A stretch of DNA of 32,000 nucleotides from Schaalia odontolytica. GTDB taxonomy: Bacteria > Actinomycetota > Actinomycetes > Actinomycetales > Actinomycetaceae. Below the pieces are notes generated by a model, which saw only the letters and a list, made by a program, of their open reading frames with translations, was not told the DNA's origin and did not search any database. Both the position numbers and the translations under genes were made by a program. Positions 10,620-32,000 of the stretch are shown here, piece by piece; position 1 is the first letter of the stretch; the number at the start of each line of letters is the position of its first letter. The stretch lies in NCBI RefSeq assembly GCF_005696695.1, contig NZ_CP040006.1, positions 60,001 to 92,000 on the forward strand. The letters run 5' to 3'.

Positions 10620-10977
10620 TGCTTCGCGCCTCGACGTCATGAACCGGCTCGGCCGGGCCATGGCCGACCCGACGCGTTCCCGGATCCTGATGTCCCTGCT
10701 TGACGGCCCGAGCCACCCCGCCGTGCTCTCGCGCGAGCTGGGGCTGACCCGCTCGAACGTGTCCAACCATCTGACCTGTCTGCGCGACTGCGGCATCGTG
10801 GTCGCTGAGCCCGAGGGCCGCCAGACTCGCTACGAGATCGCCGACCCGCACCTGGCCGCGGCGCTGACGGCACTGGTCGATGTGACCCTCGCCGTGGACG
10901 AGAGCGCGCCGTGCATCGACCCAGCCTGCTCGGTGCCAGGCTGCTGCGCCGCGAGCAGTTCGGGGGACGCCTCGTGA
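10609..10977 (+). CDS. cmtR: ArsR/SmtB-family metal-sensing repressor, CmtR-like (Cd/Pb sensor type)
   Basis: ORF track 10609..10977. It is close, along its length, to my recollection of M. tuberculosis CmtR: ..RLGRAMADPTRSRILMSLLDG..LGLTRSNVSNHLTCLRDCGIVVAEPEGRQTRYEIAD..LAVDESAPC... The Cys pair in LTCLRDCG and the C-terminal Cys residues are conserved. Confidence 0.85.
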   Translation: MLTIASRLDVMNRLGRAMADPTRSRILMSLLDGPSHPAVLSRELGLTRSNVSNHLTCLRDCGIVVAEPEGRQTRYEIADPHLAAALTALVDVTLAVDESAPCIDPACSVPGCCAASSSGDAS

Positions 10978-12878
10978 GCGCCGCCTGCGGCTGCGACGAG
11001 CCGACGACCAGTCCCGCGGACGAGGCAGAGGAGGTAGAGCGCCCGTGGTGGCGTGATCCCGGCCTGGTCGTGCCGATCCTCTCCGGCGTCGCGTTCGGCA
11101 CTGGCCTGGCGCTGGAGTGGTCGGGGCTGCACATCGCGGCGCTGGTCGCGTTCTGGGCGGGCCTGCTGCTGGGCGCGTACACGTTCGTGCCCGGTGCGAT
11201 TCGGAATCTCGTTGTGAAGCGCAAGCTCGGGATCGCGCTGCTGATGACGATCAGCGCCGTGGGCGCGGTGATCCTCGGCTACGTCGAGGAGGCGGCCGCG
11301 CTGGCGTTCCTCTTCTCGATCGCCGAGGCCCTGGAGGACAAGGCGATGGACCGCGCCCGCGGTGGGCTGCGCGCGCTGCTGAAGCTCGTGCCGGAGACCG
11401 CGACCGTGCTGCGCGACGGGACCTCCGCCTCGGTCCCGGCCAGGGAGATCGCCGTCGGCGACGTGCTGCTGGTCCGCCCTGGCGAGCGGGTCGCGACCGA
11501 TGGGCTGGTCCGCTCGGGCCGGTCGAGCCTGGACACTTCGGCGATCACGGGTGAATCGATCCCGGTCGAGGTCGCGCCCGGAGAAGCGGTGTCGGCGGGC
11601 GCGATCAACAGCGCCGGCGTGCTGGAGGTCGAGGCGACCGCCGCGGGTACCGACAACTCGCTGACCACGATCGTGGAGCTGGTAGAGCAGGCCCAGGCCG
11701 AGAAGGGCGACCGAGCCCGGATCGCTGACCGGATCGCCCGCCCGCTGGTACCCGGCGTGATGGTCCTCGCCGTCCTCGTCGGCGTGCTCGGGTCCCTGCT
11801 CGGCGACCCGGAGACCTGGATCACCCGCGCCCTGGTCGTCCTCGTTGCGGCCAGCCCCTGCGCGATGGCGATCGCGGTGCCCGTCACCGTGGTCTCCGCG
11901 ATCGGTGCGGCGACCAAGTTCGGCGTCGTCATCAAGAGCGGGGCCGCCTTCGAGCGCCTCGGCGGTATCCGGCACCTGGCCGTGGACAAGACCGGCACTC
12001 TGACCCGCAACCGGCCCGAGGTAACCGCCATCGTCGCCGCCCATGGGTTCGACGATGCGCAGGTGCTTGCTTGGGCTGCCGCAGTGGAGCAGCACTCGAC
12101 GCACCCACTCGCAGCCGCCATCGCCGCCGCGGGCTGGGGAACCCCCGCCGCGCAGGACGTGGCCGAGGAGGCCGGGCACGGCATCGGTGGCCTGGTCGAC
12201 GGCCGCAGGGTGGCGGTGGGCAGTCCGCGCTGGATTGACGCCGGTCCGCTCAAGGCCCGGGTCGAAGACCTGGAGGCCGAGGGGCAGACCTGCGTGCTCG
12301 TCACCGTCGACGGCTTCCTGGCCGGTGCGATCGGCGTCCGCGACGAGCTGCGCCCCGAGGTCCCCGAGGTCGTGCGGACCCTGCGCGACCAGGGCGTCGA
12401 GGTGAGCATGCTCACCGGCGACAACTCCCGCACCGCTGCTGCGCTGGCGAAGCTGGCCGGGATCGGCGACGTGCACGCCGAGCTGCGTCCCGAGGACAAG
12501 GCTCGTATCGTCGCCGGGTTCTCGGAGACGTCGCCGACCGCGATGATCGGCGATGGCATCAACGACGCGCCCGCCCTGGCCGGGGCGACCGTGGGCATCG
12601 CGATGGGCGCGACCGGCTCCGACGCCGCGATCGAGTCCGCCGACGTCGCCTTCACCGGCCACGACCTCGGCCTCATCCCGCAGGCTCTGCGCCACGCCCG
12701 CCGCGGCGGCAGGATCATCAACCAGAACATCGTTCTGTCCTTGGCGATCATCACTGTGCTGCTGCCGCTGGCGATCACCGGCGTGCTCGGCCTGGCAGCG
12801 GTCGTCCTCGTGCACGAGGTCGCCGAAGTCGTCGTCATCGCCAACGGACTGCGGGCTGCGCGTGCCCGCAAGCAATAG
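10974..12878 (+). CDS. Heavy-metal-translocating P1B-type ATPase (SPC motif); ion specificity not assignable
   Basis: ORF track 10911..12878. GTG 10974 overlaps the cmtR stop (GTGA) and is taken as the start, though this is uncertain. Motifs: AASPCAM in a TM helix, phosphorylation site DKTGTLT, HP (STHPLA), GDGINDAPAL hinge, late TM ..LVHEVAEVVVIANG... The N-terminus is short, with a CGC motif, and has no long metal-binding domain. Confidence 0.88.
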   Translation: MSAACGCDEPTTSPADEAEEVERPWWRDPGLVVPILSGVAFGTGLALEWSGLHIAALVAFWAGLLLGAYTFVPGAIRNLVVKRKLGIALLMTISAVGAVILGYVEEAAALAFLFSIAEALEDKAMDRARGGLRALLKLVPETATVLRDGTSASVPAREIAVGDVLLVRPGERVATDGLVRSGRSSLDTSAITGESIPVEVAPGEAVSAGAINSAGVLEVEATAAGTDNSLTTIVELVEQAQAEKGDRARIADRIARPLVPGVMVLAVLVGVLGSLLGDPETWITRALVVLVAASPCAMAIAVPVTVVSAIGAATKFGVVIKSGAAFERLGGIRHLAVDKTGTLTRNRPEVTAIVAAHGFDDAQVLAWAAAVEQHSTHPLAAAIAAAGWGTPAAQDVAEEAGHGIGGLVDGRRVAVGSPRWIDAGPLKARVEDLEAEGQTCVLVTVDGFLAGAIGVRDELRPEVPEVVRTLRDQGVEVSMLTGDNSRTAAALAKLAGIGDVHAELRPEDKARIVAGFSETSPTAMIGDGINDAPALAGATVGIAMGATGSDAAIESADVAFTGHDLGLIPQALRHARRGGRIINQNIVLSLAIITVLLPLAITGVLGLAAVVLVHEVAEVVVIANGLRAARARKQ

Positions 12879-12903
12879 GTGTTCCGTCCAACGCCATAAC
12901 TCA

Positions 12904-13192
12904 GACATGCGCTACGAGAACCCCCTCTATCTCGCCGAGGAGGCCGCAGCCCTGGACCTGATCGCCGACGGCCACACCGCCCTCGACGCTCATTAAGCAG
13001 CTGAGCCAGGACCGCGCCCTCGCGGAGGCCGACACCCTCCTCCTGACGATCCCTAACCAGCTCGGATTCGAGGAAAACTGGTCGATTATCCGCAACTTCG
13101 CGGAGTACGTGGCCCCCGCGCTCGGGTGGGAGCCGGCGCGTCCGGGTGCCCTCCCGACGGGCTACGACATCGACGAGGCCGGGGCCGAGTAG
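12904..13192 (+). pseudogene. 5'-truncated, internally deleted second copy of the LLM oxidoreductase gene
   Basis: 12904-12985 aligns with 8974-9055 (7 mismatches in 82). 12986-13192 aligns with 9610-9816, including the TAG stop (5 mismatches in 216 when the 9 nt after the stop are counted). The equivalent of 9056-9609 (554 bp) is missing, which shifts the frame; a TAA follows at 12994-12996. Confidence 0.88.
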
Positions 13193-27094: not shown

Positions 27095-27331
27095 TCACTT
27101 GCCGAGCTTGTCCTTGGCCTCGTCGGCAACCTCGGTCGCCTTGTCCTGGGCGGCTTCCTTGGCTTCCTCAGCCTTGTCCTGGGCGGCGTGGGCGGCTTCC
27201 TTGGCCTTGTCCTTGGCCTCGCCAGCCAGCTCGGTGAGCTTGTCCTTGGCTTCCTCAGCCTTCTCCTTGGCCGCGTCGACGACCTTCTCGATGCTCTCTT
27301 CAGCCTGCTTCTTCAGATCTTCCAGACCCAT
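27095..27331 (-). CDS. Small Lys/Glu/Ala-rich helical protein (78 aa), paralog 2
   Basis: ORF track 27095..27379 (-). Start trimmed to ATG 27331, which is preceded by AAGGAGAA. Translation: MGLEDLKKQAEESIEKVVDAAKEKAEEAKDKLTELAGEAKDKAKEAAHAAQDKAEEAKEAAQDKATEVADEAKDKLGK*. The KDKA/EEAK units are internally repetitive. Confidence 0.72.
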   Translation of the reverse strand: MGLEDLKKQAEESIEKVVDAAKEKAEEAKDKLTELAGEAKDKAKEAAHAAQDKAEEAKEAAQDKATEVADEAKDKLGK

Positions 27332-27572
27332 GGTGTTCTCCTTGGCGTAGTGCCGTTCCGACAACCGGAACGGATACAACCGATCCTACCGGCCGTTTGT
27401 CTAGGTGGCCTGGGGTGTGGGAACACAGTCCCGCATGCTGGTGTAAGGGTTAGACGAAGGCCGTTAGAATCGGTGATTTCCGCCATCTCGGTCAATGATT
27501 GGGGGGCTTTCAGGGGCCAACCAGGGCACTCCCTCATGGAGGTGAGATGCGCCTCGGGAATAACGTGGAGAC

Positions 27573-28298
27573 ATGACAGAGAACAACGCGGGTCTGGTGA
27601 CCCGAGCACTGACGAAGACATACATGCGCGGGCACACGCCCGTCCACGCCCTGGCGGGCGTCGACCTGACCCTCCCGCAGGGTACGCAGGTGGCGATCAT
27701 GGGCCCCTCGGGCTCCGGTAAGACGACGCTCCTGCACTGCCTGGCGGGTGTCCTGCGCCCCAGCTCCGGATCGATCACGCTCGATGGTGAAGAGATGACG
27801 ACTATGTCGGAGCGGGTGCTCTCCGACCTGCGCCTGCGCCGCTTCGGCTTCGTGTTCCAGGATGGCCAGCTCCTGCCCGAGCTACCCACGGAAGAGAACA
27901 TTGCGATGCCCCTCATGCTGGCGGGCACGCCCAAATCGCAGGCTATTTCCCGCGCCCGCGAAATCCTCGCGAACCTCGGGCTCGACGGCGCTGGCCCCTA
28001 CCGCCCCGGCCAGCTGTCGGGAGGACAGGCACAGCGCGTCGCGATCGGCCGTGCGCTCGCCACCGATCCCTCGGTGATCTTCGCGGATGAGCCCACGGGG
28101 GCCCTCGACCAGGCCACCGGCGGTGAGGTCATGTCCCTGCTGACGAGCGCCTGCGCCTCCACGGGGGCATCCCTTGTCCTCGTCACCCACGACCCCGCCG
28201 TCGCCGCGCGCCTGCCGCACACTATCCACGTGCGCGATGGCCGCATCTCCCTCGAGGCACGAGGCAGTGGAACCCCCAACCAGGGGGTGGCCCGATGA
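27573..28298 (+). CDS. ABC transporter ATP-binding protein (MacB/LolD/FtsE-like subfamily)
   Basis: ORF track 27573..28298. Motifs: GPSGSGKTTLL, ..FVFQDGQLLPELPTEENI.., LSGGQAQRVAIGRALA, IFADEPTGALD, LVLVTHD. Confidence 0.9.
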   Translation: MTENNAGLVTRALTKTYMRGHTPVHALAGVDLTLPQGTQVAIMGPSGSGKTTLLHCLAGVLRPSSGSITLDGEEMTTMSERVLSDLRLRRFGFVFQDGQLLPELPTEENIAMPLMLAGTPKSQAISRAREILANLGLDGAGPYRPGQLSGGQAQRVAIGRALATDPSVIFADEPTGALDQATGGEVMSLLTSACASTGASLVLVTHDPAVAARLPHTIHVRDGRISLEARGSGTPNQGVAR

Positions 28299-29662
28299 GC
28301 GCGGTACGCACCGCCGCCGGGGCGCTCCTGCGGTCGCGTGACCGGGCAACGTCCGTCCTCACGGTCGCGGCCTTTGCCCTGCCGCACGCGTTCCTGCTCG
28401 CGGTCACGGGCGGCGTCATGGCCTTCGGGGCGAGGGCTGCCGTCGCCGCTGCGTCCGCCACGGCCGACGACCCCTCAAGCCTCGACGGGATGGCCTCGTT
28501 CTACGTGATGCTTGCGTACTTCGCGGCCACCCTGCTCATCGTCCCCATCATTTCGATGGGGGCAGCGGCTGCGCGCCTGGGCATGAGTCGGCGCGAGCGC
28601 GACCTCGCGGTCCTGCGCCTCGTCGGCCTCGCGCCGGGCAAGACGAAGCTCGCCTGCATCCTCGAAACCTGTGTGTTTGCGGTTGTCGGCGTCGTCGTCG
28701 GCTCGATCCTGTACGCCGTGACGCTGCCCGCGTGGGGTGCGCTGTCCTTCCAGGGCCGCCCGATGGGGGCCGGCGAGATGTGGGTGGGGGTTGTGGCCCT
28801 CCTCGTCGAGGGACTTGCCATGATCGTCCTGGCCGCCCTGTCCTCGTGGCTGGCCATGCGCAAGGTTGCGATCACCCCCCTGGGCGTCGCGCGTCGCACG
28901 CAGGCGGGCCGCGTGAGCGCGGTCGGCCCCGTCCTCGGCCTGGTTCTCCTCGTGGTGTGGCTGAGCGTCGGCACCCTCGCGATGAACCTGGGAACTGCTA
29001 TCGGCATGGCCGTATTCCTGGGCTTCATGGGCGCGATCTTCCTGATCGTCAACCTGGTGGGCATCTGGTCGATCAGTCTCATGGGGCGCATCATGGCTCG
29101 GGCCTCGCGCAGTCCCCAGATGATGGTGGCCGGGCGTCGCATGGCCGACGACCCGCGCGCTGTGTGGCGCTCCTTCGGGGCGGTGGCCCTCGTTGGGTTC
29201 CTCGTGGGCATCATGTATCCGGCGAGTGATTCGATCTCGATGAGCGGGGACAGGACCGATGAGGTCGCGCTTATCGTCATCGGCGACATCAACAGAGGCA
29301 TGTTGCTGACCTTCGCGATCACCCTCGCGCTGGGCGCCGTGTCGACCGCGGTCAACCAGGCGATCCGCGTCCTCGACTCCGCCGACCAGGTACGAGCCCT
29401 GTCCTACATGGGGTCCCCGCGCGGCTTTATGGACCGCAGCCGTCGCCTCGAGGTCGCGATTCCCGCGTTCGTCATGATCGTTGGCTCGATGCTGCTCGGC
29501 ATGGTGTTCATGTCGCCGATGCTTGCGGCGGGTGCCGGAAAGGGTGTCCTCATTGCGCTCGCCTCATCGATTGCGGGCGTCATGCTCATCGTCGTTGCCT
29601 CCGAGGCGACCGTCCCGCTGCGCCGCCGCATCCTGTCGGGCGTGCGCGAGGGGCGCGAGTAG
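28295..29662 (+). CDS. FtsX-like ABC transporter permease
   Basis: ORF track 28295..29662. The ATG overlaps the ATPase stop (ATGA). Polytopic protein with an FtsX-type helix cluster (..RRERDLAVLRLVGLAPGKTKLACILETCVFAVVG..) and a second hydrophobic half. There is no large extracytoplasmic domain. Confidence 0.78.
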   Translation: MSAVRTAAGALLRSRDRATSVLTVAAFALPHAFLLAVTGGVMAFGARAAVAAASATADDPSSLDGMASFYVMLAYFAATLLIVPIISMGAAAARLGMSRRERDLAVLRLVGLAPGKTKLACILETCVFAVVGVVVGSILYAVTLPAWGALSFQGRPMGAGEMWVGVVALLVEGLAMIVLAALSSWLAMRKVAITPLGVARRTQAGRVSAVGPVLGLVLLVVWLSVGTLAMNLGTAIGMAVFLGFMGAIFLIVNLVGIWSISLMGRIMARASRSPQMMVAGRRMADDPRAVWRSFGAVALVGFLVGIMYPASDSISMSGDRTDEVALIVIGDINRGMLLTFAITLALGAVSTAVNQAIRVLDSADQVRALSYMGSPRGFMDRSRRLEVAIPAFVMIVGSMLLGMVFMSPMLAAGAGKGVLIALASSIAGVMLIVVASEATVPLRRRILSGVREGRE

Positions 29663-29688: not shown

Positions 29689-29726
29689 GGCCCCGGCCTC
29701 GTCCCCCTATCGACGAGGCCGGGGCC
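29689..29726. repeat. GC-rich palindromic (REP-like) hairpin after the ABC exporter operon
   Basis: GGCCCCGGCCTCGTC (29689-29703), loop CCCCTATC, GACGAGGCCGGGGCC (29712-29726): a perfect 15-bp stem with no T tract. It is the inverted counterpart of 1331-1365. Confidence 0.62.
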
Positions 29727-29732
29727 GAGTCG

Positions 29733-29747
29733 CGCTCAAATTGAGCG
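29733..29747. promoter_or_regulatory. Perfect 7-1-7 palindrome upstream of the tail-anchored protein gene (possible operator)
   Basis: CGCTCAA-A-TTGAGCG lies at the start of an AT-rich stretch. A possible promoter follows: GTGACG 29770-29775, a 16-nt spacer, then TAGGAT 29792-29797. Function is untested. Confidence 0.3.
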
Positions 29748-29833
29748 ATATTGAAGAAATCAAACGTATGTGACGCGCGCCTCATGAGTGCTAGGATTGC
29801 GCCATTCACACCGCAATAGTCGATGGAGACATC

Positions 29834-30121
29834 GTGTACCGCTCGCCTTCCCAGTACTCGCACGCGGAGGGGGTCGGTGGGGCCGCGCGAGGAGCGCAGG
29901 TCACCAGGCCAGCCGCGCGTCGCCGGCGTCCCGCGCCGCCCTCGTATCCGCCCGCCGTGCGCCCGAGCGTGCGCGCGCGAGCCGACCTCGACGAGGAGAT
30001 CTTCTCCTTATCCGACTCGACCCAATGCCCGCTGTCAGTGGGTGCGCGGCGCTTTTCGCGCCTCGGGGCCTTCGTGGCTGCCGTGCTGCTCGCTGCGGCT
30101 GTTGCCTTCTGGTGGTTCTAG
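29834..30121 (+). CDS. Small tail-anchored membrane protein (95 aa): Arg/Pro/Ala-rich N-terminus and a C-terminal TM
   Basis: ORF track 29834..30121 (GTG start, GGAG 5 nt upstream). It ends ..RFSRLGAFVAAVLLAAAVAFWWF*. The frame is supported by the relic at 30695-30757, where differences are mostly third-position and the stop is conserved. Two other frames are also open, so the N-terminal part is less certain. Confidence 0.55.
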   Translation: MYRSPSQYSHAEGVGGAARGAQVTRPAARRRRPAPPSYPPAVRPSVRARADLDEEIFSLSDSTQCPLSVGARRFSRLGAFVAAVLLAAAVAFWWF

Positions 30122-30155
30122 TTAGATTCATTCACATCGCGAACGAGGAGGTTTG

Positions 30156-30662
30156 ATGATGAGTGGAAAAGATGAGGCAGCGATACCTGTGGGGGTTGCT
30201 CCTAGCAGTCCAGCGAGGGCTCGGGTGTCTGAGGGCATCTCTCCTGCATCGCCGCAGTGGCAACAGGGAACGGCTGCGCGGATCCTGCCCGCGAAGCCCA
30301 TCGTGAAGAAGCCGCGGGTTCCCAAAATTTGGATCATCTTTGCCGTCGTCGGCCTGCTGCTGCTTCTCGCGCCGAGCATCGTCACATTCCTGATTAATTT
30401 AGGGCCTGGGGATCACTCGGATAATGGCGATGGTCAGTACTGGCTTCCGGGTCTTCTCCTCGTCCCATGCATGATTTTTGGTTTACTCACCGTATTTCTT
30501 GCTTTCTGCGTGGGAATTGGCGAGTGGGTCGCATGGGTGTGGACTGCACGTCAACAAAACGCGCTGTCGGCGCGCATGTTCATCATTCCCCCGGTGGTCA
30601 TAGTCGCCTTTTACTTCGTTACCAGATTCTGTGGGGCTACTCTGTTCAATCTTGGCATCTAG
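30156..30662 (+). CDS. Small membrane protein, array member X1 (168 aa, about 3 TM)
   Basis: The ORF track starts at 30153. ATG 30156 or 30159 follows GAGGAGG (30145-30151). Layout: disordered N-terminus, basic patch KKPRVPK, TM (IWIIFAVVGLLLLLAPSIVTFLI), Gly/Asp/Asn loop ..GDHSDNGDGQYW, then two further hydrophobic helices. Confidence 0.65.
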   Translation: MMSGKDEAAIPVGVAPSSPARARVSEGISPASPQWQQGTAARILPAKPIVKKPRVPKIWIIFAVVGLLLLLAPSIVTFLINLGPGDHSDNGDGQYWLPGLLLVPCMIFGLLTVFLAFCVGIGEWVAWVWTARQQNALSARMFIIPPVVIVAFYFVTRFCGATLFNLGI

Positions 30663-30694
30663 CGAAACTACCCGATGCAGCGAGCGAGCGTAGG

Positions 30695-30793
30695 CTCGTC
30701 GGGGCCTTCGTGGCTGCCGTGCTGCTCGCCGCGGCCGTTGCGCTATGGTGGTGGTAGTCATTACCCCAGCGACGGGCAGTGAAAGGACCAGGC
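30695..30793 (+). repeat. Junction block B: relic of the tail-anchored gene 3' end plus a conserved leader
   Basis: 30695-30757 matches 30062-30121 (..GGGGCCTTCGTGGCTGCCGTGCTGCTCGC..TGGTGG..TAG) and would encode ..LVGAFVAAVLLAAAVALWWW*. 30728-30808 also matches 31739-31819 at roughly 90 percent by hand count. Confidence 0.8.
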
Positions 30794-31174
30794 ATGAACG
30801 AGAGTAACGACGTGACGATGCGCGGCGAGAATGTCCCCGAGGCCATGGTTGCATCCGCTGTCGTGGCGCAGCCCGTCGCGCCTGGCGGATCGACCGCGGC
30901 AATCACTGGCGCACCTGTTACTCCCCCGCGGCGTCGGGGCTCAAAGCTGGCGCGCTTCTTCGTCATCTTGGGGATCGTGCTGCTCTCAAGCGTGTTCGTT
31001 TTGCCCCTGCTAGCTGAAGCGATGGATAGCGGCAGTAATCCCTCCGGTGTCGCGAGCGGCTGGACCTTCTTCTTCGCCGTGTTTTATGTTGCCCCCTTCG
31101 GTCTTATTTCGTTCCTGCTCGCGATCTTCGCCAAGCTCGCGCAGAAGCTTGATGAGAAGGAACAGGGCCTCTGA
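30794..31174 (+). CDS. Small two-TM membrane protein, array member X2 (126 aa)
   Basis: ORF track 30779..31174. ATG 30794 follows GAAAGGA. Layout: disordered N-terminus, RRRGSK patch, TM1 FFVILGIVLLSSVFVLPLLA, loop EAMDSGSNPSGVASGW, TM2 TFFFAVFYVAPFGLISFLLAIFA, charged tail. Confidence 0.7.
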   Translation: MNESNDVTMRGENVPEAMVASAVVAQPVAPGGSTAAITGAPVTPPRRRGSKLARFFVILGIVLLSSVFVLPLLAEAMDSGSNPSGVASGWTFFFAVFYVAPFGLISFLLAIFAKLAQKLDEKEQGL

Positions 31175-31189
31175 GGGTTTCAACCGCGC

Positions 31190-31212
31190 GCCGCGGCCGT
31201 TGCGCTATGGTG
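31190..31212 (+). repeat. Junction block C: short relic of the same 3' end
   Basis: GCCGCGGCCGTTGCGCTATGGTG is identical to the corresponding part of blocks B and D. It starts 15 nt after the X2 stop. Confidence 0.7.
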
Positions 31213-31272
31213 CTGGTTCTGGGGTACCCCGGTGTCTTCCCGAATGGAATAGAAGGCCGTTAAGGCGGCTTC

Positions 31273-31722
31273 ATGATCTGGAGGTTGCTTCAGTTGGATA
31301 GCGTGCTGTTACTTGTCGCCCCCATCCTCATTATTTTCCTTATCGCGCTGGCAATCGATGCTGGGGTAACGAAGAGGCGCGAGAGGAAGGCCGCCGAAGC
31401 GGCGGCGTGGGCCGCACAGGCCTACGGAGCTGCTTGGGATCCTCAAGGCGCACTGAGCGTCCAGAAACCACGCCGCGGCTCAAAGGTGGTGCGCTCCTGC
31501 GTCATTTTGGGATTCGTTATCCTGGGAAGCGTCGTCTATTGGCCGCTGTTGGTGCTCCTGGTAGACCCTATTGTTTCGGGTGGCAATGCATCAGAAGCTG
31601 ATGCTGGCCTTATGTTCCTGTTGTGCCTTATCTTCGTGGCTCTGTTCAGCCTTCTTGCCTTCCTGTTCGCCTTCATTGCACATCTCGCCGTCAAGGGTGC
31701 GGAGCGGAATCAGGGGTACTAA
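31273..31722 (+). CDS. Small membrane protein, array member X3 (149 aa; an extra N-terminal TM plus the two-TM core)
   Basis: ORF track 31273..31722. Core: ..QKPRRGSKVVRSCVILGFVILGSVVYWPLLVLLV, loop DPIVSGGNASEADAG, then LMFLLCLIFVALFSLLAFLFAFIAHLAV, then a charged tail. Confidence 0.65.
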   Translation: MIWRLLQLDSVLLLVAPILIIFLIALAIDAGVTKRRERKAAEAAAWAAQAYGAAWDPQGALSVQKPRRGSKVVRSCVILGFVILGSVVYWPLLVLLVDPIVSGGNASEADAGLMFLLCLIFVALFSLLAFLFAFIAHLAVKGAERNQGY

Positions 31723-31738
31723 GACCGTCCACGCGTAC

Positions 31739-31804
31739 GCCGCGGCCGTTGCGCTATGGTGGTGCAAGACATCACCCCAGCGGCGGGCAGTGAAAGGATC
31801 AGGC
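31739..31804 (+). repeat. Junction block D: relic plus a conserved leader
   Basis: GCCGCGGCCGTTGCGCTATGGTGGTG..CACCCCAGCGGCGGGCAGTGAAAGGATCAGGC matches block B. It starts 16 nt after the X3 stop. Unlike block B, it has no stop codon in the relic frame before the next ATG. Confidence 0.75.
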
Positions 31805-32000
31805 ATGAGCGAGAGCACGAGTGGAGTGTCCCCTTCGACGAAGAAGAGTGGAAACTACAAGATTCCGCTCATTCTTGGTGCTATTGGGCTTCTGCTGATG
31901 ATTAGCCCGTTCTTCTATTCGGCGTACGTCGACGCAACCGTCGGTCGGGGTGATCCCAATAGCGTTTCGTCGGGTTGGGCCTTCGTGTGGGCCTTCTATC
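31805..32000 (+). CDS. Small membrane protein, array member X4 (partial; runs off the right edge)
   Basis: Not in the ORF track because there is no stop in the window. Hand translation: MSESTSGVSPSTKKSGNYKIPLILGAIGLLLMISPFFYSAYVDATVGRGDPNSVSSGWAFVWAFY.. It has the same plan as X2, and it also shares the leader and first codons with X2. Confidence 0.65.
   Translation, partial: MSESTSGVSPSTKKSGNYKIPLILGAIGLLLMISPFFYSAYVDATVGRGDPNSVSSGWAFVWAFY

Follow-up and report, generated by a model that had tools for sequence, protein, structure and literature searches.

At the right-hand end of a 32,000-nucleotide (nt) stretch of the Schaalia odontolytica genome (contig NZ_CP040006.1, positions 60,001 to 92,000; hereafter the window) lies an array of small membrane-protein genes: a lead gene, here called A, followed by four genes, X1 to X4, with conserved junctions B, C and D ahead of X2, X3 and X4. 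Positions are those of the window unless prefixed with L, the prefix of the loci compared below, L001 being contig LLVT01000001.1 of strain XH001 (assembly GCA_001462375.1). The final 11,207 bases of the window are identical to that record, from which the DNA past the right edge was taken. All five genes are annotated as "hypothetical protein", and the literature on XH001 has never discussed APY09_02995-03015. The initial annotation of the window described a cassette-like array whose conserved junctions derive from the 3' end of the lead gene, and the repeats and the junction table presented here bear this out. It also held that the array continues past the window. X4 is indeed completed outside it, but the array ends 92 nt on, at a Cof-type HAD hydrolase gene (APY09_03020), beyond which lies a second and different array. 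The features of the array, all on the plus strand, are as follows.

29770-29797, plus strand: predicted promoter of the A-X operon (-35 GTGACG, 16-nt spacer, extended -10 TGC-TAGGAT)
29834-30121, plus strand: gene A, APY09_02995, 95 amino acids (aa), with a GGAG ribosome-binding site 5 nt ahead of a GTG start
30156-30662, plus strand: X1, APY09_03000, 168 aa, starting 34 nt after A; hairpin core plus extra C-terminal hydrophobic helices
30694-30793, plus strand: junction B, a 65-nt relic of the A tail (30694-30758, core 30728-30750), then leader I with GAAAGGA
30794-31174, plus strand: X2, APY09_03005, 126 aa; disordered N-terminus, basic patch, helical hairpin
31186-31272, plus strand: junction C, core 31190-31212, then leader II
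31273-31722, plus strand: X3, APY09_03010, 149 aa; hairpin core plus an extra N-terminal transmembrane helix; paralogue of X5
31735-31804, plus strand: junction D, core 31739-31761, then leader I
31805-32000, plus strand: X4, APY09_03015, cut by the window edge; in full 31805-32092 (L001 11012-11299), 95 aa

The product of A is predicted to consist of an Arg/Pro-rich cytoplasmic N-terminal part and a single C-terminal transmembrane helix with a WWF end. Between XH001 and L011, whose lineages are about 7% diverged, 11 synonymous and 7 non-synonymous changes are counted when A is read in its own frame, and 4:14 and 3:16 when it is read in either of the others; codons 1-58 carry five synonymous and no non-synonymous changes, and tail types differ in the last 4-5 residues only. 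The predicted promoter block upstream is near-invariant between lineages 8-10% diverged, its -10 element reading either TAGGAT or TAGAAT. Homologues of A number 126, about 110 of the 120 listed being 90-100 aa long, and none of them carries a name.

The genes downstream of A had been described as sharing almost no sequence identity, which is wrong. In BLASTP comparisons X2 and X3 are 41% identical over 122 aa (E 4e-17) and X2 and X4 27.5% (E 3e-10); X5, a gene of other strains that XH001 does not have, is 48% identical to X3 (E 3e-34) and 42% to X2, and X1 is 29% identical to a paralogue (g134) that lies outside the window, beyond the HAD gene. An alignment of the X proteins brings out a common plan, namely a basic patch RRxxK, an ILG-type helix, a Gly/Ser/Asp/Asn loop ending in W and a YVAPFGL helix, and the RRGSK and SGW motifs of the initial annotation were found again. 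The X genes are thus diverged paralogues of one family. An AlphaFold2 model of X2 (mean confidence score pLDDT 59.5) has helices at residues 49-77 and 86-123 and leaves residues 1-43 disordered. According to the positive-inside rule, a loop of 8-16 residues would alone face outward, and this extracytoplasmic loop is the most variable segment of X2 among 59 alleles (0.53 bits, against 0.15-0.22 in the helices).

As in the initial annotation, the array proteins could be assigned to no named family. Searches of A, X1-X5 and the downstream paralogues against Pfam, NCBIfam, PADLOC and PHROGs gave nothing above threshold, and neither A nor any of X1-X5 has a Pfam or NCBIfam match that reaches the cut-off for EsaG/DUF600, TipC, TsaI/DUF443 or Lpl/DUF576. 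A profile and sequence search of the PDB found no relative of the array proteins, and Foldseek with the X2 model returned nothing from the PDB at E <= 0.001, only generic hairpins. A profile of the X family matched 195 proteins among 5.8 billion, with no Pfam domain and no credible functional name; where a source is given, it is Schaalia, Pauljensenia or an oral Actinomyces. When 1.84 billion cluster representatives were searched exhaustively with HMMER, 54 members of the family were found. On the evidence of these searches, the A and X families are tiny and confined to this lineage.

Relics of gene A at the junctions

The end of A (30058-30122) is repeated at 30694-30758 over 65 nt with 86% identity and with the stop codon in the same position, and a 32-nt core family comprises four copies, starting at 30088, 30724, 31186 and 31735. 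Within this family a 23-nt core, GCCGCGGCCGTTGCGCTATGGTG, occurs exactly at 30728, 31190 and 31739, ahead of X2, X3 and X4. The repeated A tail and the core copies, both reported in the initial annotation, were recovered by a repeat finder, and 100 dinucleotide-preserving shuffles held no match to GCCGCGGCCGTTGCGCTATGGTG within three mismatches. By its sequence, the core is a remnant of the 3' end of A. Among the strains compared, such relics measure 23-90 nt and stand ahead of X2, X3, X4 and X5. The core copy in junction C was placed correctly at the outset, but the relic there is longer than was then stated: it extends through TGGTTCTGG, and its former stop codon is now TGG. A longer and more diverged relic, ahead of X5 in other strains, reads MLPVAARESTPPARVAALMVVMLASVAAALWWWF-stop, which suggests that diverged A-type tails once existed.

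Over 78 nt, blocks B and D are 91% identical (30727-30804 and 31738-31815). As had been noticed initially, the similarity takes in the leader, the ribosome-binding site GAAAGGA and five codons at the start of the following gene; the identity profile runs at 77-93% and then collapses past these codons. Two types of unit alternate, with leader I preceding the two-helix genes X2 and X4 and leader II preceding X3 and X5, whose products have an extra N-terminal helix. The copies of leader I ahead of X2 and X4 agree at about 90% of their positions, and leader I is conserved to a similar degree across lineages, far more than the gene bodies; from lineage to lineage, each copy keeps its own B-type or D-type form. 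Thus, it is not homogenised and is probably selected as an expression signal. The array also stands out by composition, with the lower G+C content that had been claimed for it (0.58-0.63, against 0.65-0.72 upstream).

Translation into the relics was considered and dropped as a probable coincidence, since the X3 stop codon is out of frame with relic D and there is no slippery site for a frameshift. The TGA of X2 is in frame with relic C (31172-31260), and read-through there would give about 25 residues, including AAAVALWCWFW.

Turnover of the array among strains

Related loci were gathered by exact-protein look-ups, one genome scan with A (at least three loci) and one metagenome scan with the core pattern, and A, X1-X5 and the cores were mapped on each of them. 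The approximately 45 loci fall into at least 12 architectures, from A alone up to A with four X genes, so that cassette number varies between conserved junctions, and cassette order differs as well (L015, L018); both kinds of polymorphism had been proposed for comparison by the initial annotation. The architectures are as follows.

With X1 and further X genes: A-X1-X2-X3-X4 (XH001 and others); A-X1-X2-X4-X5; A-X1-X2-X5
With X2 directly behind A: A-X2-X3-X4; A-X2-X4; A-X2; A-X2-X4-X3'-X5; A-X2'-X3-X4'; A-X2'-X3-X5'-X4'
Others: 5'-deleted A with X5' (X5 in L027, L031); A-X1 alone, directly followed by the HAD gene (L016, L046, L048); A alone, with no X gene (L044); truncated A without an X gene

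All deletion and reassortment breakpoints except one lie within a junction repeat. A 636-nt deletion that removes X1 (L006, L011 lineage) falls within a 54-nt identity between the A tail and junction B, and a 549-nt deletion of X3 (L002) within a 24-nt identity of cores C and D. The deletion of X3 and X4 is marked by a hybrid of core C and the relic ahead of X5, and XH001 has lost X5 by a deletion between the copies of a 22-nt repeat, two of which stand 5' of the HAD gene. In E. coli the minimal length for RecA-dependent exchange is about 23-27 bp, and the core and A-tail identities here, at 23-54 nt, are at or above it; slipped-strand deletion, too, typically acts on direct repeats with a spacing of 0.5 kb. 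In a junction table of 91 sites with 52 distinct sequences, the left contexts (A tail, X2 stop, X3 stop) are each joined to several of the right leaders (X2, X3, X4, X5), exactly at the core. Junction C, for example, occurs as a hybrid with the X4 leader in L032, L034, L002 and L018 and with the X5 leader in L004.

The turnover of the array is fast, with three architectures among strains whose HAD gene differs by no more than 0.7% from that of XH001. Cassettes are also mosaic between lineages, as in L026, whose X3 is 98.9% identical to that of XH001 while the adjacent permease gene is 91% identical. One contig, L033 (BNJV01001598.1), was considered as a distant species (FtsX 51%, exact core) and rejected, being a frameshift-ridden contig of the L027 type; its single-base insertions and deletions make proteins look 50-68% identical, and low protein identities from the BNJV assembly are not trustworthy.

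Ratios of non-synonymous to synonymous substitution (dN/dS; Nei-Gojobori method) are 0.05-0.12 for the well-covered flanking ATP-binding cassette (ABC), permease and HAD genes, and up to 0.16 on a short permease fragment. Gene A has ratios of 0.18-0.33, X2 and X4 mostly lie at 0.3-0.37, and X3 comes to 0.64-0.79 when diverged lineages are compared, with values of 0.13-0.8 for X2-X4 in every well-powered strain comparison. Hence, the array genes are constrained, yet they evolve faster than their flanks. Their expression can be judged from published RNA sequencing (RNA-seq) of XH001, the host of the Saccharibacteria epibiont TM7x (PMC4742689), together with the features that precede the array:

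27573-28298, plus strand: ABC ATPase gene of the MacB/LolD type, APY09_02985 (Pfam ABC_tran 5e-33; NCBIfam LolD/MacB-like)
28295-29662, plus strand: FtsX-like permease gene, APY09_02990 (Pfam FtsX 25.3 bits, slightly below the 25.5-bit cut-off)
29689-29726, plus strand: terminator-type hairpin 3' of the permease gene (perfect 15-bp stem, 100% complementary, 8-nt loop)

The log2 ratios of A, X1, X2 and X3 reach a false discovery rate below 0.01 (PMC10768705 Table S1), so these small reading frames, proposed in the initial annotation from sequence, are transcribed. In the comparison of 6-h recovery with the initial TM7x encounter, A and X1-X4 have log2 ratios of -1.27, -1.13, -0.59, -0.55 and -0.41 in this order, and the ABC genes +0.47 and +0.01 (PMC10768705). 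The fading of the ratio along the array fits with the hairpin after the permease gene, the predicted promoter upstream of A and the start of X1 only 34 nt past A. In transposon sequencing of XH001, no APY09_029xx or APY09_030xx gene is among the 203 putatively essential ones (PMC12369343), and natural deletions of array genes exist among the loci compared. A and the X genes are thus real, expressed, dispensable and under selection.

Probable recombination at the junctions and rival explanations

We consider it likely that this is a lineage-specific tandem paralogue array that evolves by homologous recombination at its conserved junction blocks. A single main promoter would drive A, encoding the tail-anchored protein of 95 aa, and then the paralogous hairpin-protein genes, and each unit after the first would consist of a relic of the last 23-90 nt of A, a leader with a ribosome-binding site and an X gene. 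The relics most likely arose by duplication: tandem duplication of segments starting inside the 3' end of A would leave an intact A in front and a headless tail before the next X gene. Once present as direct repeats, the relics would allow unequal crossover or slipped-strand deletion to remove or reassort cassettes, and strains could exchange cassettes by using them, along with the conserved boundary ahead of the HAD gene, as homology anchors. The outcome would be a strain-specific set of 0-5 X genes behind one conserved lead gene. A-X1 is likely the ancestral pair, because it is the arrangement of the most diverged lineages (A 63-76% identical). Recombination as the mechanism appears well supported by the sequences compared, and a RecA-type or slippage pathway would account for the breakpoints better than a site-specific one.

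Several points weigh against this explanation. The deletion in L013 and L021 uses only 4-6 nt of microhomology at the core edge, and thus not every event is homologous. The crossovers are deduced from assemblies and metagenome contigs, some of which may be mis-assembled across repeats, though the occurrence of identical hybrid junctions in independent samples argues against mis-assembly. The conservation of leader I points to purifying selection on it, perhaps as a promoter or regulatory element, rather than to repeat history alone. In addition, no link to a toxin, phage or receptor was found for the array proteins.

The third of these points can be taken further, into a reading in which the junctions are conserved mainly as expression signals: TATGGT in the core would be a -10 element of the form TANNNT, leader I a regulatory 5' untranslated region, each cassette would have its own promoter, and junction recombination would be a by-product. 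We regard this as possible but on balance doubtful. All core variants do keep T-A-N-N-N-T (TATGGT, TAGGGT, TATCGT), and the A tail ahead of X1, which starts only 34 nt past A, has TTCTGG instead; yet a TANNNT is expected by chance about once per 64 nt, the core has neither a -35 nor an extended -10 element, and a sigma-70 consensus scan found no promoter in any junction. The approximately 90% identity of leader I, as against the 27% aa identity of the X2 and X4 bodies, the step down in RNA-seq ratio from X1 to X2 and the presence in the second array of a leader repeat of its own (85 nt, 96%) all speak for a regulatory role, but the leaders and junctions have no Rfam match, and in consensus folds of leader I and of leader II no covariation was convincing, the sole pairing kept through two-sided changes being a hairpin of 3-4 bp past the former stop codon. 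Moreover, one lineage shows nearly neutral drift in the 5' half of the core, with L011 junction D differing at 3 of 23 positions. That the core is instead the attachment site of a dedicated recombinase, which would move core-leader-X cassettes as in an integron, strikes us as extremely improbable. The array resembles integrons in its compact same-strand cassettes, short conserved junction, apparent single main promoter and variable content and order (L015, L018), and the joins are precise, at one short core that contains an 8-nt palindrome, GCCGCGGC, with many left-right combinations. However, no integrase or recombinase domain is encoded in the 32-kb window or the 20 kb downstream, an inverted-repeat search found no attC-like structures at the junctions (attC sites being imperfect inverted repeats of 57-141 nt) nor is there an attI, and each cassette has its own ribosome-binding site. 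Other events use the 54-nt A-tail identity, the 22-nt repeat on the HAD side or microhomology, and this use of different repeats fits an exchange that is driven by homology and not by a site. The initial annotation had also named silent-cassette systems as a precedent. Like Mycoplasma vsa/vsp and Neisseria pilE/pilS, the array has a conserved leader and first codons ahead of divergent bodies, and one conserved upstream 'expression' region that can be joined to different bodies. Unlike these and vlsE, its cassettes are complete, expressed genes with intact reading frames in direct orientation, each with its own ribosome-binding site and start, so that it is not a silent-cassette system; unlike vsa/vsp and pilE/pilS, the changes seen are deletions and reassortments, not reversible inversions or conversions from silent copies, and no recombinase is present in the window or the 20 kb downstream.

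The remaining rivals concern what the genes are. In an orphan immunity array, the X proteins would be immunity proteins, the relics the remains of former toxin copies, and A the surviving toxin or toxin-like lead gene. The form is that of the Staphylococcus aureus tsaI membrane-immunity array, within which a 3' fragment of tspA is found and where no recombination was detected at the fragment (Garrett et al. 2022, PMC9484751), and also that of orphan cdiA-CT/cdiI and rhs loci, in which small membrane or immunity genes come after a lead gene and are interspersed with fragments of its 3' end. As with tspA-tsaI, recombination between lead gene and fragment would delete the genes in between, an outcome present in L006; at junctions of the XH001 type, by contrast, recombination is frequent. 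Strain-variable copy number, fast evolution, an exposed loop that is the most variable part and diverged relics that imply former A paralogues would all suit immunity genes. Nevertheless, we think this reading unlikely, and the suggestion of the initial annotation that this is a polymorphic-toxin or bacteriocin locus was not upheld, as neither the 32-kb window nor the 20 kb that follow it were found to contain a gene for a toxin, a bacteriocin or a secretion system. TspA, CdiA and Rhs are secreted toxins of large size whose C-terminal toxin domain varies, whereas A is a tail-anchored protein of 95 aa that matches no toxin, LXG, WXG, Rhs, CdiA or other known domain, its 58 N-terminal codons are invariant and only its last 4-5 residues vary, all of which also tells against A itself as a polymorphic toxin. 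A stands alone in L044, X5 stands behind a 5'-deleted A in L027 and L031, and no array protein matches an immunity or defence family. A type V, VI or VII secretion system is likewise absent from the window and about 20 kb downstream, the rest of the genome being unsearched, and the S8 peptidases found there score 144 bits against a cut-off of 279. Less likely again, indeed very unlikely in our estimate, is that A and the X proteins are accessory or regulatory membrane subunits of the adjacent MacB/FtsX-type exporter. The ABC and permease genes lie directly 5' of A in every locus of the lineage compared, and the permease is reported to be raised in stable co-culture with TM7x. But a perfect terminator hairpin, kept in L016, L044 and L046, and a separate predicted promoter lie between them and A, the RNA-seq ratios are opposite in sign, and the exporter is a separate transcription unit from the array. 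In other Schaalia and in Kocuria the exporter has homologues of 47-59% identity beside which neither A nor an X gene is found, and the link that the initial annotation drew between exporter and array is therefore only positional. X genes and even A have been lost where the exporter is kept, and there is no conserved genetic coupling of array and transporter such as characterises BceAB and Lcn972-type modules.

The array can also be compared with its closest counterparts in form. In the esaG and tipC arrays of Firmicute type VII systems and in S. aureus lpl, recombination at conserved blocks (gene end plus intergenic region) leads to gain, loss and mosaics (PMC9484751). Like the esaG (DUF600), tipC and lpl arrays, the XH001 array consists of same-strand, non-identical paralogues with short high-identity blocks (23-78 nt at 86-100%) and strain-variable copy number. 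It has no sequence or fold relation to these families, however, and no type VII locus or toxin is seen beside it as for esaG and tipC; what recombines is not a part of the repeated gene but a leader and the 23-90 nt left over from another gene upstream, and its bodies are much more diverged (27-48% aa identity). As far as sequence can tell, the XH001 array works like the esaG, tipC and lpl arrays and is a member of none of them. If so, the recombination dynamics of Firmicute type VII immunity arrays would also be at work in an Actinomycete, without a visible toxin system, and a 23-nt relic of the end of a neighbouring gene could suffice to organise such an array.

As to function, we suggest tentatively, and with less confidence than for the recombination itself, that the array provides variable envelope proteins. 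These would protect the cell from an agent that acts on its membrane, for instance a toxin or bacteriocin, a phage or an epibiont, or would modulate contact with such an agent, and the Gly/Ser/Asp/Asn loop would be their sole exposed and fast-varying part. An immunity or exclusion role is plausible but unsupported. A bolder proposal, which seems to us quite improbable, is that cassettes are captured and shuffled without a recombinase, the end of A acting as a portable homology anchor, and that the resulting repertoire sets susceptibility to a surface-acting partner, candidates being the epibiont TM7x, the phage LC001 and contact-dependent killing by other Schaalia. As a model host, XH001 supports the first Saccharibacteria epibiont to have been cultured. 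The array is among the parts of the chromosome that change fastest between close strains; being variable, transcribed and non-essential, and encoding membrane proteins with a tiny variable exposed loop, it offers a cheap and concrete candidate for knockouts and cassette swaps.

Genes flanking the array

The remainder of the window holds genes of transport and metabolism. Among them, a reading frame of 692 aa at 10830-12908 on the minus strand, with 71-73% G+C, has no Pfam match at E <= 1e-5, and long reading frames on both strands overlap it. Upstream of the ABC genes, at 27095-27379 on the minus strand, APY09_02980 encodes a small LEA/YtxH-like protein rich in Lys, Glu and Ala, whose transcript shifts markedly in the TM7x RNA-seq data (log2 -1.2 to -1.8). 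In the lineage of L011-L013 its counterpart lies within an insert of about 440 nt between the permease gene and the A promoter (L011 3994-4206, minus strand).

The hairpin that follows the permease gene has as its left arm GCCCCGGCCTCGTCCC (29690-29705), which is found again directly 5' of the HAD gene (L001 11336-11351), so that the A-X module is bracketed by copies of the arm. The copy on the HAD side is exact in L002 and L016 and has two mismatches in XH001. Since GCCCCGGCCTCGTCCC also occurs in other hairpins of the genome (L011 17895, L014 13163), it may be a dispersed palindromic element.

Beyond the HAD gene, the second strain-variable array (L001 12256-18930, APY09_03025-03075) comprises 11 small membrane-protein genes of at least three families: proteins with a Pro/Gln-rich N-terminus and 3-4 helices, polytopic proteins of about 270 aa, and X-type hairpins. 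Its 85-nt leader is repeated at 96% identity (L001 12269-12353 and 13897-13981) ahead of diverged bodies, and its gene content varies, as seen in L008, L011 and L044. It is followed on the minus strand by two to three tandem genes for S8 (subtilisin) peptidases (L001 18926-20381; L011 10545-15800), whose number varies by strain. These peptidases are mycosin-like (143.7 bits, family cut-off 278.75), from which a type VII context was expected; this was rejected, as the region beyond holds no Ecc or Esx genes. Upstream of the S8 genes and in the same orientation is an orphan reading frame of 553 aa that matches no family, and then come peptidyl-prolyl isomerase, rhomboid, crgA and sortase genes. 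The last X-type paralogue of the second array (L001 18402-18860) is of interest in its own right: its alleles P0040, P0049, P0065 and P0106 have near-identical N- and C-terminal parts, between which two unrelated versions of the first helix and loop occur, GRATNGFQHNSDTLF and LIPGDHGDSGDGLLW, a mosaic within one gene.

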